Shown here: piece after piece, positions 126 through 30,220 of the stretch
How positions within the stretch are numbered: position 1 is the stretch's first letter
How the letters are laid out: every line of letters begins with the position of its first letter
Virus record (IMG/VR): IMGVR_UViG_3300045988_115369
DNA: 41,577 bases
From: a virus
Direction: 5' to 3' (one strand)
The notes under the pieces: generated by a model
Told to the model about the DNA's origin: nothing
Seen by the model: only the letters and a program-made list of their open reading frames with translations
The model's database searches: none
Translations under genes and position numbers: made by a program

Positions 126-155
126 AAGAAAAAGAGAGAACGAAAATGTTCTCTC
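126..155 (-). terminator. Hairpin plus U-tract between phage promoter phi-1 and the RNAP start codon
   Basis: Minus strand reads GAGAGAAC-AUUUUC-GUUCUCUC followed by UUUUUCUU. An 11-nt U run lies further downstream, before the RBS (AAAGGA). Confidence 0.6.
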
Positions 156-176
156 CCTCTATATGTGCCACAATTA
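154..176 (-). promoter_or_regulatory. Phage-RNAP promoter phi-1, directly upstream of the RNAP gene
   Basis: Minus strand TAATTGTGGCACATATA|GAGGGAGAG. It has the same 17-nt length and purine-rich start region as the T7 promoter TAATACGACTCACTATA|GGGAGA. Confidence 0.8.
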
Positions 177-1389: not shown

Positions 1390-1785
1390 TTACTGTGCAA
1401 TTTCCAAGAAACCAAAGTCACATTCGATGAACCCATCATCCATAAGGGCATCTGCTACCTTGTCATAGTCCAGATAATCTTCTAATTTATCAAAGCTATC
1501 CCCCCAATAGCCTTCCACCCCTAACTCTTTGATTAAGTCTTCCCAATCCATTTCTTCTCTCCACCAAATTGAATGATTTGCAAGTTTTTCCAGTACTTCT
1601 TCTAAGTCATCCTGCACGTACTTAAGATACTGTTCCACGATAATCTGTTCATATTCTTCCAAGTCATCCAGTTCATCCTGTACTTCATCCGCTTTGAGAT
1701 ACGTCCAATACTTATCATCCACCGTGATTTCTTGATGATACTTGTTGATTTTGTTAAGAATATACTTATACATAGCCATTGCCAT
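1390..1785 (-). CDS. ArdA-like acidic early protein (putative anti-restriction DNA mimic)
   Basis: Very acidic. The C-terminus LEDYLDYDKVADALMDDGFIECDFGFLEI resembles the Tn916 ArdA C-terminus (NYIDYQAYGRDL...GIFEI), compared from memory. Three ATGs sit close together at the start. Confidence 0.55.
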   Translation of the reverse strand: MAMAMYKYILNKINKYHQEITVDDKYWTYLKADEVQDELDDLEEYEQIIVEQYLKYVQDDLEEVLEKLANHSIWWREEMDWEDLIKELGVEGYWGDSFDKLEDYLDYDKVADALMDDGFIECDFGFLEIAQ

Positions 1786-1812
1786 TCCACCCTTTCTTTT
1801 TAATCCTAGCCT

Positions 1813-1881
1813 GTCTCATCAGCATGGGTAGGCTATCCCCCATGGACTAGACACATCCTCTCTTGTGTGCCTAGTTTCGAC
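1813..1881 (-). ncRNA. Type II hammerhead ribozyme, copy A
   Basis: Minus-strand RNA: GUC-GAAAC-UAGGCACAC..GUGUGUCUAG-UC^-CAUGGG(GGAUAGCCUA)CCCAUG-CUGAUGA-GAC. All core nucleotides are present. Predicted cleavage falls between 1845 and 1844. Confidence 0.85.
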
Positions 1882-1882
1882 T

Positions 1883-2230
1883 TTATGCAATGAGTTCACC
1901 TGTCGTGATATCCACCACTTGTGCATGTAGCACGTCCAGTCTGTAGTTTTTGTTGTTTGCCACCATCTTTACAAGGGAAAATGGAATAATTCCATTTGTT
2001 CTACAGTGTTCATCAATGAACCATCGAATGTGTCGCCGTGTTGTCATGCTGTATAGCCCCGTGATTTCGAGACTATCCAGTGTTCCCTTGATTACAAGGG
2101 TATTGTAAGAGTACATTTCATATTCTGTAGACACATTGTCCTTGTTTGTGTCTACCCATACCGTGTAATTTTTTGTTGTGTGCTTGCCTTTTTCGATGTT
2201 GAACCATTTAAGCATTTTCATCATCCCCAC
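1883..2230 (-). CDS. Early protein, function unknown
   Basis: 115-aa ORF. The start is GTG at 2230 or ATG at 2224. The stop lies 1 nt from the 5' edge of hammerhead A. Confidence 0.6.
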   Translation of the reverse strand: MGMMKMLKWFNIEKGKHTTKNYTVWVDTNKDNVSTEYEMYSYNTLVIKGTLDSLEITGLYSMTTRRHIRWFIDEHCRTNGIIPFSLVKMVANNKNYRLDVLHAQVVDITTGELIA

Positions 2231-2462
2231 TTTCTTCTTCCTCTTCTTCTGAAATACCTAACGTCTCAAAAATCCAGTCTGAATCGAACCACATGATATC
2301 GTTTAATTCAGTTCTTCCAATTCCATCGGGATAGAGTTCTTCAATCATGTCACAAAATTCCTCCCCTTTGCCCTCTCTTTCAATACGTTCTGCCGTATCT
2401 ACAGCCCCACTCCATGCCGTTCTTCTAATGTCATTAAAATCCATTTCATCAAATACCTTCAT
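2208..2462 (-). CDS. Small acidic early protein with a poly-Glu tail
   Basis: Start moved to the ATG at 2462 (RBS AAAGGATGG). 84 aa, ending EEEEEESGDDENA. Confidence 0.55.
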   Translation of the reverse strand: MKVFDEMDFNDIRRTAWSGAVDTAERIEREGKGEEFCDMIEELYPDGIGRTELNDIMWFDSDWIFETLGISEEEEEESGDDENA

Positions 2463-2497
2463 AATAATTCCATCCTTTCTTTTTAATCCTGTAGCCT

Positions 2498-2567
2498 GTC
2501 TCATCAGAACGTGGGCGGCTATCCCACATTGACTAGACACACCCTCTCTTGTGCGTCTAGTTTCGAC
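2498..2567 (-). ncRNA. Type II hammerhead ribozyme, copy B
   Basis: Minus-strand RNA: GUC-GAAAC-UAGACGCAC(AAGAGAGG)GUGUGUCUAG-UC^-AAUGUGGG(AUAGCCG)CCCACGUU-CUGAUGA-GAC. Predicted cleavage falls between 2531 and 2530. Confidence 0.85.
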
Positions 2568-2569
2568 TT

Positions 2570-2935
2570 TTACTTGCTTTTCTTCACAAGCACAATTTTC
2601 AATTTATATGCCGTGTCTAAATGGTTGATATGGGTAACATCATCAAAGCAATATGCAACTAAGTTCCCTGCATAGTCACAACGTACCTTGAGAGTGCGCC
2701 CTGCATAAAAGCACACATCACCTTGTGCAATATCAGGTGAATCGTAACTACTGAATTTTTCAAGAATTTTGATTTCAATGCATTCCCATTTACCGTTTTC
2801 ATAACCTTCTTGCATTGCTATGAAATTTGAAATGCTGCCTTTAATCCTGCCGATAGCAAATTCATCAAACATAATCAACCCATTGTCTTTTGTCCATGTG
2901 TTCATGCCCCATGCCGTGATTTCTTTTCTTTCCAT
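2570..2935 (-). CDS. First early protein, function unknown
   Basis: Start moved to the ATG at 2935 (RBS GAAAGGAAG). The stop lies 2 nt from the 5' edge of hammerhead B. Confidence 0.6.
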   Translation of the reverse strand: MERKEITAWGMNTWTKDNGLIMFDEFAIGRIKGSISNFIAMQEGYENGKWECIEIKILEKFSSYDSPDIAQGDVCFYAGRTLKVRCDYAGNLVAYCFDDVTHINHLDTAYKLKIVLVKKSK

Positions 2936-3436
2936 GATTTTTCTTCCTTTCTGAATGTGTTCCGTTGTTCCTACACGCTTAACAAAAAAATTTGAGACAC
3001 CATCTCTTGATGGTTGGAATACCACTGATTAGTTCAATGGTTTAGAGACTAGATACAGCATGATTTCACTACCTTTCACCTACACCGTTCCATTTCATCG
3101 TCTGCGCTTGCCCCGTCATCACAAGATACCTTGCTAGACGTTGTAAGCACACACTCTATGAGACTGTCCACTACTCAGCCCTGCCGTATATCGCAAGCTA
3201 CTTTCATGACTTCTCAGTGTGTATCTTCACTGTCATGTTGCCACCGCTTTTCCCGATGACTTTCTTTTTTTCGTATGGTGTGAATTGATACTACGCATGC
3301 AGTAAGTTCACCATTCGCATTTTTCAGCTATTCAGTTTTCAAAGAACCCGATGATGTTTTGGGGTATCCCATCGCGTCACCGTCAATTTTTCGTTCTTAG
3401 TGGTATCACTTCCTTTCGTTCGTTCACTGTGCCTAC

Positions 3437-3465
3437 ATTGTAGCACGTTGTTCCTACATTGTCAA
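3437..3465 (-). promoter_or_regulatory. Host sigma-70/SigA early promoter P1
   Basis: Minus strand TTGACA, a 17-nt spacer and TACAAT, with an extended -10 TG (TGCTACAAT). Confidence 0.85.
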
Positions 3466-3654: not shown

Positions 3655-3683
3655 ATTGTATCATGATGTTCCTACACCGTCAA
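3655..3683 (-). promoter_or_regulatory. Host sigma-70/SigA early promoter P2
   Basis: Minus strand TTGACG, a 17-nt spacer and TACAAT, with an extended -10 TG (TGATACAAT). The spacer is a paralog of the P1 spacer. Confidence 0.85.
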
Positions 3684-4005: not shown

Positions 4006-5160
4006 ATGAAAAGACAAAGGGCACCACGAGGGCAAGGAAGTATCACACCATACGGAGATGGAAAATTCAAAGGCATCATCACCATTGGATACAAACTAGA
4101 TCCAGTGACGAAGAAGAATAAACGTCTCACAAAAACCTTTACAGGAAAGACAAGGAAAGAAGTTCAAGCAAAGATCACTGAGTATCAGTACAAAGTAAAT
4201 GCAGGGAAGATCAATCCATTGGCAGCTCCCCTTACATTCAAACAGTACAGTGAACGATGGTTAATGATGAAAAAGACAACACTGAAACCACAGACATACA
4301 GAAACTATGAGAGTAATATGCAGTGTCTTGATTTTGGCAACAAAGTGATGAAAGACATAACAGTTTCAGACGTCAACACGCTGCTCCTAACATTGCTACA
4401 GACACTCTCCCCTGCCACTGTACGAGGAAGGCACACCCTATTGAAAAGTGTCTTTGAAGGAGCAAGAAAGGAAAAACTCATTATAGAGAATCCTGTAGAA
4501 GACAGCATGCGTATCAAGGCACAGGTAGATCACACTGTGACAGAAATGCATGTCTTAACGAAAGAAGAGAGTACGAATGTTCTATTAAAAGCTAAGGAGA
4601 TGAAAGCTCCCATATGGTTCTACCCTCTGATACGTACTGCCTTAGAGACAGGGATGAGAAAAGGAGAGCTGCGTGCCTTACAGTACAAAGCACTGGGTAA
4701 AGACACCATCTATATAAAAGCAAGTGTAGAAGACAGTGCAGGGAAAGGGGCAACTCTCACAACGCCTAAGACACGTGCCTCTGTAAGGAGAATACATGTG
4801 TCTACATCACTCATTGAGATACTACAGGCTCTTCCCCATAAAGATGAAAACAGTTTTGTCTTTCACACTAAGAATGAGACTTTAATTGCTAATAGTGATA
4901 TACAGTACTACTTTAATACGCTAAAGAAAGTAAGTAACATAGACAAACCACTTCACTTCCACGATCTAAGACACACCCATGCCACCCTTCTTATCATGGC
5001 AGGTGTGAACATCAAGACCGTCTCTACTCGCCTAGGTCACGCATCTGTATCCATCACGTTAAACAGGTACACACACGCCCTTCCGCAGCAAGATAAAGAA
5101 GCTAGTGAAATGATTTGTAGTATGCTACTATCGGATACTACGATGAAAGACAATCAGTAA
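4006..5160 (+). CDS. int: Tyrosine recombinase / phage integrase
   Basis: RBS AGGAGG lies 8 nt upstream. The N-terminal Arm-type DNA-binding segment is GSITPYGDGKFKG...GKTRKEVQAKI. Catalytic motifs are HDLRHTHAT and LGHASVSITLNRYTH. It is the only plus-strand gene. Confidence 0.95.
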   Translation: MKRQRAPRGQGSITPYGDGKFKGIITIGYKLDPVTKKNKRLTKTFTGKTRKEVQAKITEYQYKVNAGKINPLAAPLTFKQYSERWLMMKKTTLKPQTYRNYESNMQCLDFGNKVMKDITVSDVNTLLLTLLQTLSPATVRGRHTLLKSVFEGARKEKLIIENPVEDSMRIKAQVDHTVTEMHVLTKEESTNVLLKAKEMKAPIWFYPLIRTALETGMRKGELRALQYKALGKDTIYIKASVEDSAGKGATLTTPKTRASVRRIHVSTSLIEILQALPHKDENSFVFHTKNETLIANSDIQYYFNTLKKVSNIDKPLHFHDLRHTHATLLIMAGVNIKTVSTRLGHASVSITLNRYTHALPQQDKEASEMICSMLLSDTTMKDNQ

Positions 5161-6088: not shown

Positions 6089-6111
6089 TCCCTTTCTACG
6101 TGCCACAATTA
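6089..6111 (-). promoter_or_regulatory. Phage-RNAP promoter phi-2
   Basis: Minus strand TAATTGTGGCACGTAGA|AAGGGAGAC. Confidence 0.8.
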
Positions 6112-6115
6112 GAAC

Positions 6116-6138
6116 TTTGTATATATGTGCCACAATTA
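6116..6138 (-). promoter_or_regulatory. Phage-RNAP promoter phi-3 (tandem with phi-2)
   Basis: Minus strand TAATTGTGGCACATATA|TACAAAG, 27 nt upstream of phi-2. Confidence 0.75.
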
Positions 6139-9266: not shown

Positions 9267-9431
9267 TCATAATAATTTGAGCAATACAAGAAGTATAACT
9301 CCTATAGGAGCAACAACGAAAGAGAGAAATACAAAAACAATCATACATGCTCCTGCATATGATGTTCCTTCTTTTTCTTCTACAATAGCAGCAGCAATTA
9401 AGAAAGCAATAACAGCTAATGTTGCAATCAT
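9267..9431 (-). CDS. Small hydrophobic membrane protein (holin/antiholin-like)
   Basis: ATG at 9431 after AGAAAGAAGGG. 54 aa with two TM helices. An alternative start at 9509 would add a third TM. The upstream part of the 127-aa ORF overlaps the 216-aa gene out of frame. Confidence 0.5.
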   Translation of the reverse strand: MIATLAVIAFLIAAAIVEEKEGTSYAGACMIVFVFLSFVVAPIGVILLVLLKLL

Positions 9432-9534
9432 ATTTATCCCTTCTTTCTGCCTATAGTATAACATGCTTAATATAAATATAATAGGGGTGCCAAAAGACAC
9501 CCCCACCATATTTAACTTACCGCCTAACTTATTA

Positions 9535-10185
9535 CTAAGTAGTAGGTGTAGTAGTACCTGTAGGTGCCAAAGGATTTGGAACAATGAAAGCAGGAACAGG
9601 AGCAGGGCGAAGTCTCTGAACAAGATCCGCAGTCTGTGCTGTCTGTCCATTAAGGATATTCGCTGCCATGAGCTGTCTATCCCTTTCTTCCAGTTTAGCC
9701 TTCAGTTCTTCCATCTGGTATGCAGAGAACATTGCTCTGGTCTTCTCTCCATCCTCTTTAATAGCTTCTACGATACTGCAAGTGTTCCTATACCCTTCTG
9801 TACGAACTGCATCAAGGTTTCTGTTTGTCTCACAGCAGCACATCTGAGATGCCTGCTGGTTCTGAGCAAGCTGCTGCATAAGACCAAAGTTGCCCTGCAT
9901 GACAGTCTTCTCCAGACCATTGATACCATTCGTGAGAGCATAGGTGCTATTAGACTGTCCATAGGTCAGCCCACGCATCTGAGACATTTCATTAGAGTAA
10001 TCAAACCCTCTCTGAATGTCTGCCTGCGTTGCAGTATTCCCTTTGTTACCAAAGAGATTACCACCACCACCGAGTAATACGAATAAAACGACTACCCACA
10101 ACCATTCACTACCACCGAAACCACCACCTGTCTTCTCATTCAGATTGAATACAGGCTGCACACCACTACTCATACCGTTCTCCAT
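9535..10185 (-). CDS. Glycine-rich TM protein with a Gln-rich/coiled-coil body and Pro/Thr tail, function unknown
   Basis: 216 aa. GGGFGGSEWLWVVVLFVLLGGGGNLFG is a glycine-zipper-like TM segment. A CCCE motif is present. The tail is PAPVPAFIVPNPLAPTGTTTPTT. Confidence 0.6.
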   Translation of the reverse strand: MENGMSSGVQPVFNLNEKTGGGFGGSEWLWVVVLFVLLGGGGNLFGNKGNTATQADIQRGFDYSNEMSQMRGLTYGQSNSTYALTNGINGLEKTVMQGNFGLMQQLAQNQQASQMCCCETNRNLDAVRTEGYRNTCSIVEAIKEDGEKTRAMFSAYQMEELKAKLEERDRQLMAANILNGQTAQTADLVQRLRPAPVPAFIVPNPLAPTGTTTPTT

Positions 10186-23755: not shown

Positions 23756-23831
23756 TGGTGTCTCTTTAAGGACTTGAACCTTAAACCTTCTGGGCATGAA
23801 CCAGATGCTCTAACCATTGAGCTAAAGAGAC
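23756..23831 (-). tRNA. tRNA with anticodon CAU (elongator Met or Ile2 type), CCA encoded
   Basis: The 76-nt sequence folds by hand as a cloverleaf: acceptor GTCTCTT/AAGAGAC, D arm GCTC/GAGC, anticodon arm TCTGG-TTCATGC-CCAGA, T arm TAAGG-TTCAAGT-CCTTA, discriminator A, then CCA. It is not initiator-like: the 1:72 pair is G:C and there is no triple G:C in the anticodon stem. Confidence 0.93.
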
Positions 23832-30197: not shown

Positions 30198-30220
30198 TCC
30201 CCTTCTACGTGCCACAATTA
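30198..30220 (-). promoter_or_regulatory. Phage-RNAP promoter phi-4
   Basis: Minus strand TAATTGTGGCACGTAGA|AGGGGAAGAG. Confidence 0.8.

Follow-up and report, generated by a model that had tools for sequence, protein, structure and literature searches.

Two type II hammerhead ribozymes flank a two-gene unit in the predicted early operon of a T7-like temperate gut phage

We analysed the viral sequence IMG/VR record IMGVR_UViG_3300045988_115369 over its whole length of 41,577 nt (the window) and concentrated on two repeated intergenic elements, here called HH-A and HH-B, that lie among small genes upstream of a single-subunit RNA polymerase gene. Contigs, prophages and phages with which the window was compared carry labels of the form L###. 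An earlier note on this DNA had described a module present twice, each copy consisting of a hammerhead ribozyme and a ribosome-binding site (RBS), abutting the preceding stop codon and bracketing two genes. Direct-repeat families and pairwise alignment place a two-copy module of approximately 100 nt per copy where that note had put it. The repeat matches pair 1831–1884 with 2517–2570 (91%), 1784–1807 with 2467–2490 (96%) and 1807–1822 with 2492–2507 (100%). Ribozymes, RBS stretches and genes are all on the minus strand, and in the order of that strand the locus contains the following features.

2570 to 2935, minus strand: e121, a gene of 121 amino acids (aa), TAA stop at 2572–2570.
2492 to 2567, minus strand: HH-A, type II hammerhead; stem II formed by GUC 2567–2565 and GAC 2500–2498; GAA 2564–2562; stem III hairpin 2561–2532; stem I hairpin 2530–2508; CUGAUGA 2507–2501; predicted cleavage at 2531/2530, with C17 at 2531; pseudoknot of 5 bp between tail GGCUA 2496–2492 and loop UAGCC 2521–2517.
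2463 to 2491, minus strand: spacer and Shine-Dalgarno (SD) sequence of e84, C-AGGAUUAAAAAGAAAGGAUGGAAUUAUU; SD AGAAAGGA at 2480–2473, 10 nt before the AUG at 2462.
2208 to 2462, minus strand: e84, 84 aa, net charge -21, with a poly-Glu tail.
1883 to 2218, minus strand: e111, 111–115 aa (start at 2218 or 2230), overlapping the end of e84; TAA at 1885–1883.
1807 to 1881, minus strand: HH-B, type II hammerhead; stem II formed by GUC 1881–1879 and GAC 1815–1813; GAA 1878–1876; stem III hairpin 1875–1846; stem I hairpin 1844–1823; CUGAUGA 1822–1816; predicted cleavage at 1845/1844, with C17 at 1845; pseudoknot of 6 bp between tail AGGCUA 1812–1807 and loop UAGCCU 1835–1830.
1786 to 1806, minus strand: spacer and SD of e131, GGAUUAAAAAGAAAGGGUGGA; SD AGAAAGG at 1797–1791.
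1390 to 1785, minus strand: e131, 131 aa, net charge -26, with in-frame AUGs at 1785, 1779 and 1773.

Each module opens 1–2 nt after a stop codon with GUC (the 5' strand of stem II), followed by GAA, a stem III hairpin of 10–11 bp and a second GUC. A stem I hairpin of 6–8 bp, CUGAUGA, GAC (the 3' strand of stem II), a single A and the GGCUA tail come next. The tail, which forms the pseudoknot, is followed after 10–13 nt by the SD AGAAAGG(A/G) and then by AUG. The packing against the upstream genes is tight, the e121 stop at 2572–2570 adjoining stem II at 2567 and the e111 stop at 1885–1883 adjoining stem II at 1881. Between them the two modules bracket the overlapping genes e84 (2462–2208) and e111 (2218 or 2230 to 1883). 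The pseudoknot tail begins one nucleotide past stem II, matching the published consensus (PMC3088659).

Both elements possess the canonical hammerhead core (CUGAUGA, GAA, A15.1–U16.1, C17 and G10.1–C11.1) with all invariant positions kept. Both also have the type II permutation, in which loops close stems I and III and stem II is open, as both the sequence and the Rfam alignment of HH-A show. The descriptor GTCGAAAC-N20-45-GTC-N15-35-CTGATGAGAC matched the window exactly twice, at 1813–1881 and 2498–2567, and matched none of 100 shuffles. A structural regular-expression scan likewise recovered both copies, with helices of 10–11, 7–8 and 3 bp, and gave 1 match in shuffles of 80 loci (about 2 Mb in total). 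We built a covariance model, R1, from 13 hammerhead copies of the phage clade. Run over the whole window with filters off, R1 picked out only HH-A (107.3 bits) and HH-B (93.2 bits), the next score being 12 bits. No further copies were found in the window by this search, and the ten remaining CTGATGA sites are no more than chance would give.

Rfam gave a more reserved picture. At the gathering threshold, its search of the whole window reported tRNA only. Family RF02276 aligns HH-A end to end with 35.2 bits and an E-value of 1.3e-4, the gathering score being 37. That cut-off belongs to one model and is not a property of the biology. A 161-nt search with RF02276 did not report HH-B (1804–1882, minus strand) even when matches up to E<=10 were admitted, the likely reason being a stem I that is shorter and carries a 10-nt loop. 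Related copies do exceed the gathering score (L091, 41.8 bits; L100, 37.1 bits; L082, 38.6–43.6 bits). Copies whose stem I is short and whose loop has 10 nt seem to be scored too low by RF02276, and surveys at the gathering threshold will therefore miss members of this clade.

Covariation argues for the same structure. Of the cells in the alignment of the 13 clade copies, 96.5% are paired, and double changes are seen at 4 pairs. Stem I (AU/CG; CG/UG/UA) and stem III (AU/GU/GC) vary in a compensatory way, and the pseudoknot covaries at alignment columns 53/74 (CG six times, UA four times, UG three times). When distant T7-like copies were added, 15 of 22 pairs carried double changes and 95.3% of cells paired, in an alignment that was fitted to the model and so favours the structure. 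As a control, sliding the 3' partners by 1–3 columns gave 23–51% pairing, with at most 7 pairs doubly changed. The pseudoknot of type II hammerheads has been found by experiment to be needed for fast cleavage (PMC3088659). Judged by core, topology, pseudoknot and covariation, each module does contain a hammerhead, as had been proposed, and we regard both copies with high confidence as bona fide type II hammerheads.

The second half of the module was less clear-cut. Each ribozyme is followed by GGAUUAAAAAGAAAGGRUGG and then by the start codon; GGATTAAAAAGAAAGGRTGG occurs in the window only at 1787–1806 and 2470–2489, where 0.01 occurrences are expected. An identity of 20–23 nt between the two copies reaches past the SD and is common to several relatives, which implies that both copies were duplicated or homogenised over about 100 nt. 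The SD AGAAAGGA is the usual type of this genome, found ahead of e121, e198 and the RNA polymerase gene as well. The L204 group keeps HH-B intact and has, directly after the pseudoknot tail, a 55-aa gene with its own RBS, which stands ahead of an e131 homologue that is 90% identical. Thus the earlier description of a ribozyme-plus-RBS cassette holds in that an SD and a start codon lie 10–30 nt downstream, but the RBS is not an integral part, being of the genome's usual kind and replaced in L204. By sequence comparison, the ribozyme unit is one that ends at the pseudoknot tail, and the RBS belongs to the downstream gene. The notion that the RBS stretch is part of a phage promoter or of another repeat was discarded, the stretch being found only at the two cassettes and differing from the TAATTGTGGCAC motif described below.

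The proximity of ribozyme and SD raises the question of a switch, in which the SD would be masked before cleavage and freed after it. The minimum-free-energy fold of HH-B alone does pair its SD, GGGUGG, with the 3' strand of stem I. This pairing is impossible in HH-A, whose SD is GGAUGG, and the RBS stretch is replaced altogether in L204. In ensemble folding, the mean unpaired probability of the SD before and after cleavage was 0.66 and 0.63 for HH-A, and 0.56 and 0.44 for HH-B. Since ensemble folding gives no cleavage-dependent unmasking of the SD, we rejected such a switch and consider it scarcely credible.

The genome that carries these elements has a direct terminal overlap of 119 bp (1–119 identical to 41459–41577), which shows that the window represents a complete genome of 41,458 bp, assembled as a circle. 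The minus strand carries nearly all window genes, which encode a T7-type replication set (primase/helicase, family A DNA polymerase and 5'–3' exonuclease) and a T7-type virion set (portal, gp10-like capsid, nozzle, T7 tail-fibre N-domain and T7-type large terminase). Together with the single-subunit RNA polymerase, these replication, capsid and packaging genes bear out the T7-like early-operon setting that had been supposed for the modules. Features outside the immediate locus to which we refer below are these.

41546 to 38982, minus strand: single-subunit RNA polymerase gene; the open reading frame (ORF) starting at 87 is the 5' end of the same gene.
4006 to 5160, plus strand: tyrosine integrase gene.
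23756 to 23831, minus strand: tRNA-Met (CAT anticodon), between capsid and tail genes.
3437 to 3465, minus strand: P1, predicted early promoter; TTGACA, 17-nt spacer, TACAAT, TG extension; 11/12 in a consensus scan.
3655 to 3683, minus strand: P2, predicted early promoter; TTGACG, 17-nt spacer, TACAAT, TG extension; 10/12 in a consensus scan.
165–176, 6100–6111, 6127–6138 and 30209–30220, minus strand: TAATTGTGGCAC motif sites.
35637–35648, 38292–38303, 38505–38516 and 38529–38540, minus strand: further TAATTGTGGCAC motif sites.

The window is a T7-like temperate gut phage genome. Among cultured phages, INPHARED contained zero nucleotide matches to it, and the RNA polymerases of the closest cultured phages are only about 36% identical. 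A prophage in the genome of Dialister sp. i34-0019-2H8 (L121) has an RNA polymerase with 78% identity, and Phascolarctobacterium genomes carry relatives at 44–45%. This T7-like phage type is present as prophage in L121, L206, L207 and L209, that is, in the Dialister genome and in long bacterial contigs. The host is likely to be found within the Negativicutes, whose temperate T7-like phages appear to be uncultured so far.

On the minus strand, the early region runs from a leader through e121, HH-A, e84/e111, HH-B, e131, e198 and e199 to a phage-promoter motif, a hairpin and the RNA polymerase gene. The P1 site is 100% conserved in L124, L130, L134 and L135, and transcription from it is predicted to start near 3430. 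The leader itself (2936–3430, minus strand), about 500 nt from P1 to e121, contains neither an ORF above 35 aa nor any match in Rfam. A motif of the form TAATTGTGGCAC(G/A)T.GA.GGG was found in eight copies where 0.28 are expected, every one on the minus strand. It resembles the T7 promoter TAATACGACTCACTATAGGGAGA in its layout and looks like a promoter for the phage's own RNA polymerase. One copy, at 176–165, stands directly upstream of the RNA polymerase gene, and there are zero copies between 180 and 3430, within the early operon. On the predicted promoters, the ribozymes would therefore lie in the portion that is transcribed by the host RNA polymerase.

Two further signals were seen in this region. 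A 13-bp hairpin with a U-run, flagged as terminator-like, lies at 129–160 (minus strand) between e199 and the RNA polymerase gene and begins, at 160, where the phage-promoter motif 176–165 has its predicted +1. Its role could be that of an early terminator or attenuator, that of a stem-loop at the 5' end of the phage-polymerase transcript, or both. The sequence TGTAGGAACA was found four times on the minus strand where 0.09 occurrences are expected (2966–2975, 3449–3458, 3667–3676 and 38972–38981). Two of these sites are in the spacers of P1 and P2, one is just upstream of e121 and one is just past the stop codon of the RNA polymerase gene. We take TGTAGGAACA as a candidate operator to which a lysogeny repressor might bind; a repressor gene was not identified.

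The genes around the ribozymes gave few clues to function. Homologous 121-aa genes of e121 were called in relatives. e84 matches phrog_5149 (E 3.5e-16) and has 1443 homologues, a large family without a name, and its AlphaFold2 model is all-alpha with a pLDDT of 84; Foldseek found no fold match to this model in the PDB. e111 matches phrog_4264, and its homologues in relatives carry a weak DUF8033 (PF26096) tag. e131 has only 23 homologues and an unusable AlphaFold2 model (pLDDT 42). Searches of Pfam (strict and loose), NCBIfam and PDB sequences produced no significant match for e84, e111 or e131, and the PHROG matches are without an assigned function. The genes directly downstream of the ribozymes, e84 and e131, are strongly acidic, as are e198 and e199. 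The suggestion that these early genes are anti-restriction-like is not borne out by the Pfam, NCBIfam and PDB-sequence searches of e84, e111 and e131, nor by the fold search with e84. The label is a guess from acidity and early position, strong acidity being the one trait in common with Ocr/ArdA-like proteins. Distant e84 homologues in phage contigs (L210, L212–L216) have no ribozyme upstream, and the link between hammerhead and e84 is therefore not gene-specific.

All nine IMG/VR loci of the close clade (L124–L130, L134 and L135, chosen by RNA polymerase similarity), as well as the Dialister prophage L121, have hammerheads at the same junctions. Both junctions are occupied in L009/L130, L038/L127, L080/L129, L089, L114/L128, L124 and L134. 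A single hammerhead is present in L033/L135, L125 and L121. Farther afield, type II hammerheads occur upstream of the RNA polymerase gene and on its strand in distant T7-like contigs, where copies score 22–47 bits with R1.

L133, RNA polymerase identity 61%: type II hammerhead upstream of the RNA polymerase gene.
L165/L100, RNA polymerase identity 49%: type II hammerhead upstream of the RNA polymerase gene.
L162/L091, RNA polymerase identity 40%: two hammerhead copies.
L042, RNA polymerase identity 38%: at least ten copies on the minus strand of a GC-rich T7-like contig.
L090, RNA polymerase identity 30%: three copies, two with a CUGACGA core.

From these sequences, type II hammerheads are predicted in early regions of at least five further T7-like lineages. 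Hammerhead matches were present in 12 of 80 T7-like loci fetched with an RNA polymerase profile. We found no hammerhead in the Phascolarctobacterium prophages. Among the cultured phages nearest L042, Rhizobium phage Pasto and Mesorhizobium phage Lo5R7ANS have early regions in which neither a hammerhead nor another Rfam ribozyme was detected. The latter (L218, KM199771.1), a temperate T7-like phage, carries a gene annotated 'putative RtcB' at 9397–10050, just upstream of its RNA polymerase gene. In other genomes, near-identical units of hammerhead and RBS form arrays that flank single small genes, with at least nine copies in L082 (5038–9650), at least ten in L042 and three in L032, the last with identical tail and RBS. 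The cassette recurs at the same junctions throughout the close clade and, elsewhere, in arrays beside other small genes.

A descriptor scan of IMG/VR extended these observations to at least 120 loci, and 137 unique ribozymes were taken from the matches listed. Among these listed matches, an ORF starts within 40 nt of the CUGAUGAGAC box in 126 of the 137 (median 24 nt), an SD-like motif is present in 111, and an upstream stop codon lies within 5 nt of stem II in 101 (median 2 nt). Loop I and tail share at least 4 contiguous pairs in 44% of the 137 copies, compared with 8.6% for permuted tails. As far as sequence goes, packing of stop codon, ribozyme and RBS is the norm for type II hammerheads in viral contigs, among the matches listed. 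That this packing is common argues for a role in discrete, insulated messages.

Not every copy keeps the canonical core. The HH-B of L114/L128 (L114:1788–1866, identical to L128:3798–3876) has CUAAUGA in place of CUGAUGA, a G5-to-A change at an invariant position, with conserved flanks. Other core variants are CCGAUGA in the second copy of L162 (3466–3545) and CUGACGA in two of the L090 copies. Such variants would be expected if the elements were inactive relics or poor cleavers, kept as carriers of intergenic spacer and RBS, and the Rfam scores, below threshold for HH-A and absent for HH-B, point the same way. Yet every invariant core position is kept in both window copies, the changes in stems and pseudoknot are compensatory, and the excess of loop I–tail matches over permuted tails in the listed IMG/VR copies speaks against decay. 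We therefore regard inactivity of the window elements as quite improbable.

Comparison of close relatives revealed mosaicism at the hammerhead junctions. Against L127 and L129, the window is 96–100% identical through e121 into HH-A and then about 70–76% identical in e84; against L130 and L128 the pattern around HH-A is reversed. HH-B and e131 are jointly absent in L125, L135 and L121. Stem I variants are not bound to one junction: across genomes, identity is 87.9% between A and B copies, 90.6% among A copies and 85.6% among B copies, and the HH-A of one genome is up to 97.5% like the HH-B of another. Exchange between copies is therefore implied. Equally sharp breakpoints occur at the junctions without a hammerhead (e131/e198, e198/e199 and e199/RNA polymerase), so that the hammerhead junctions are not supported as specific recombination hotspots.

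These patterns bear on the possibility that the cassettes are mainly portable intergenic joints, homology patches for the swap, insertion or loss of early genes between co-infecting phages. Cleavage would then make any newly joined gene expressible whatever its upstream neighbour, so that a role as joint is compatible with the processing of early RNA that we favour. The identity breakpoints at HH-A, the joint loss of HH-B and e131, the insertion of the 55-aa gene of L204 exactly past the pseudoknot tail of HH-B, the unbound stem I variants and the near-identical arrays of L082, L042 and L032 are all in keeping with it. There is also a precedent in T4-type phages, the PeSL elements (PMC2839356, PMC4122927). 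Like the hammerhead cassettes, they are repeated short intergenic units that flank small accessory early genes, and both lie at borders of insertion, deletion or replacement between close relatives. PeSL elements differ in consisting of a promoter and a stem-loop (terminator) and not of a ribozyme. In the phages studied here, breakpoints and insertions or deletions fall at HH-A and HH-B and equally at junctions without a hammerhead, which suggests that gene-border mosaicism is general and makes a role as recombination joints a secondary reading. Moreover, the shared presence and absence of HH-B and e131 may reflect a single event, and a homology patch of 80 nt leaves the preserved core and the compensated pseudoknot unexplained. 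As their main function, exchange is possible but on balance unlikely.

A further alternative would have the two ribozymes act as a pair, the e84–e111 segment being excised and then circularised, or its flanks joined, through the reverse hammerhead reaction or by a host RtcB-type ligase. A complete hammerhead can form anew from HH-B's 5' half and HH-A's 3' half. The halves are interchangeable, with identical core and stem II (GUC/GAC), stem III remaining in the 5' product and stem I in the 3' product. Hammerhead chemistry also leaves the ends that RtcB joins, a 2',3'-cyclic phosphate and a 5'-OH (PMC8782182), and an outcome of this kind was considered for clusters of phage hammerheads by Perreault et al. 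(PMC3088659). The same authors sought spliced or circular products of tandem phage hammerheads and found none (PMC3088659), and the relatives with a single hammerhead (L125, L135 and L121) indicate that a pair is not required. Excision therefore seems to us very unlikely.

We favour instead a model in which HH-A and HH-B are active in the early operon and cut the early polycistronic RNA into separate mono-, di- and polycistronic mRNAs, and give it a probability of roughly 0.7. Host RNA polymerase would start at tandem sigma-70-type promoters near 3465 and 3683 and produce one long early RNA comprising the leader, e121, HH-A, e84/e111, HH-B, e131, e198, e199 and possibly the RNA polymerase gene. 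Each ribozyme would fold during transcription and cut after GUC, at 2531/2530 and 1845/1844. Three RNAs would result: an e121 message of about 900 nt from P1, an e84–e111 message of 686 nt (1845..2530) and a downstream RNA starting with e131. About 39 nt past the stop codon, the upstream products would terminate in the stem III hairpin of 10–11 bp, which would bear a 2',3'-cyclic phosphate. The downstream products would begin with a 5'-OH and a fully paired stem I hairpin, as the earlier note had proposed and as the base pairs A2530–U2508 and C1844–G1823 predict, and the SD would follow 35–50 nt on. The folded remnant of the ribozyme would lie immediately 5' of a ribosome positioned on the start codon. 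With hairpins at the product ends, each message would thus receive defined, structured ends and a 5' untranslated region (UTR) independent of upstream sequence. Paired 5' ends generally protect RNA. The phage would in this way carry its own RNA-only processing, independent of a host enzyme. Sequence, structure, covariation, genomic position and recurrence among related phages are established here, whereas cleavage in vivo, the effects on stability and translation and the assignment of the promoters are what we infer.

Precedents for activity exist. Tandem phage hammerheads cleave polycistronic RNAs both in vitro and in vivo (PMC3088659), and three type II hammerheads of Desulfovibrio vulgaris self-cleave in cellular RNA (PMC8782182). 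A number of observations weigh against our model. HH-A falls just under the Rfam gathering score, and HH-B is without any Rfam report. HH-B is absent in three relatives (L125, L135 and L121), and the ribozyme is in that sense dispensable in evolution; in L114/L128 the G5-to-A change has probably inactivated it. Most T7-like contigs at 34–53% RNA polymerase identity, among the 80 loci, carry no hammerhead. P1 and P2 are predictions from consensus matches. Finally, a 5'-OH end can make RNA less stable in Firmicutes: in Bacillus, as cited in a review (PMC6765202), the 3' product of the glmS ribozyme, which has such an end, is degraded by RNase J1.

Natural type II hammerheads with a pseudoknot between loop I and the 3' tail, located near integrases and prophages, were described by Perreault et al. 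in 2011 (PMC3088659). Several of their prophage hammerheads flank single genes or short blocks, three of them surrounding the anti-restriction gene ardA in one case, and processing into operon- or gene-length mRNAs was proposed (PMC3088659). A 2019 review (PMC6765202) noted that processing could set differing stabilities or translation efficiencies and considered hammerhead biology largely unresolved. Control of stability or translation is accordingly the standard hypothesis for phage hammerheads (PMC3088659, PMC6765202). HH-A and HH-B share with the published type II elements the core, the pseudoknot, an intergenic phage position near an integrase and copies flanking one or two genes. They differ in their host genome, a T7-like temperate phage of Negativicutes, and in scoring at or below the Rfam threshold. 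The hammerheads of Perreault et al. were shown to cleave (PMC3088659); for HH-A and HH-B cleavage is predicted. The flanking arrangement has been known in phages since 2011, and what we describe is a new example in a new setting, not a new mechanism. For the T7-like early operon in particular, the earlier note had known of no described hammerhead, and we likewise found no paper describing one, in a literature search that did not cover all journals.

A close functional parallel is T7, where host RNase III cuts the early precursor of about 7 kb at five sites to yield mono- and dicistronic mRNAs (PMC4858673). As is predicted for HH-A and HH-B, the T7 sites lie between early genes of host-transcribed RNA, both around the RNA polymerase gene and upstream of it. 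T7 has five cut sites, compared with two here. T7 processing relies on a protein enzyme acting on a long duplex and leaves 5'-phosphate and 3'-OH ends, whereas self-cleavage by the RNA would here leave 5'-OH and cyclic phosphate ends. The hairpins left at the 3' ends of T7 mRNAs stabilise these mRNAs. We considered whether the elements could themselves be T7-type RNase III signals, which are irregular duplex hairpins of about 20 bp or longer, and rejected this, as they are three-way-junction ribozymes with a longest helix of 10–11 bp. Their likeness to RNase III signals would be functional only.

Synthetic insulators of the RiboJ type, engineered from the hammerhead of a plant satellite RNA, place a hammerhead just upstream of an RBS, where it strips variable RNA and leaves a structured 5' end. 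The likeness would lie in context-independent expression, the phage elements being natural, of type II and stabilised by a pseudoknot. They also supply ready-made natural parts for designing operons in Firmicutes-like hosts.

These findings leave unaltered what is known of the nature of hammerheads; what is new is the early-operon context of a T7-like temperate phage and the natural variants found there. With its simple and well-understood transcription programme, the T7-like early operon is a good test bed for the role of hammerheads. T7 uses RNase III at equivalent positions, and a comparison or swap between ribozymes and RNase III sites is therefore possible. The natural variants in close relatives, namely the absence of HH-B and the G5-to-A core change, are ready controls. 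We offer as a tentative generalisation, unlikely as it stands but worth entertaining, that the hammerhead cassette serves several T7-like lineages and many other phages as the standard connector between accessory early-gene modules. If this were so, an element of about 75 nt would close the upstream message with a hairpin that protects it and would provide the downstream gene with a 5' UTR that is capped by a hairpin and independent of context, while supplying homology for the exchange, insertion and loss of modules. Early regions built in this manner would be plug-and-play, and the cassette would replace the T7-style dependence on host RNase III.

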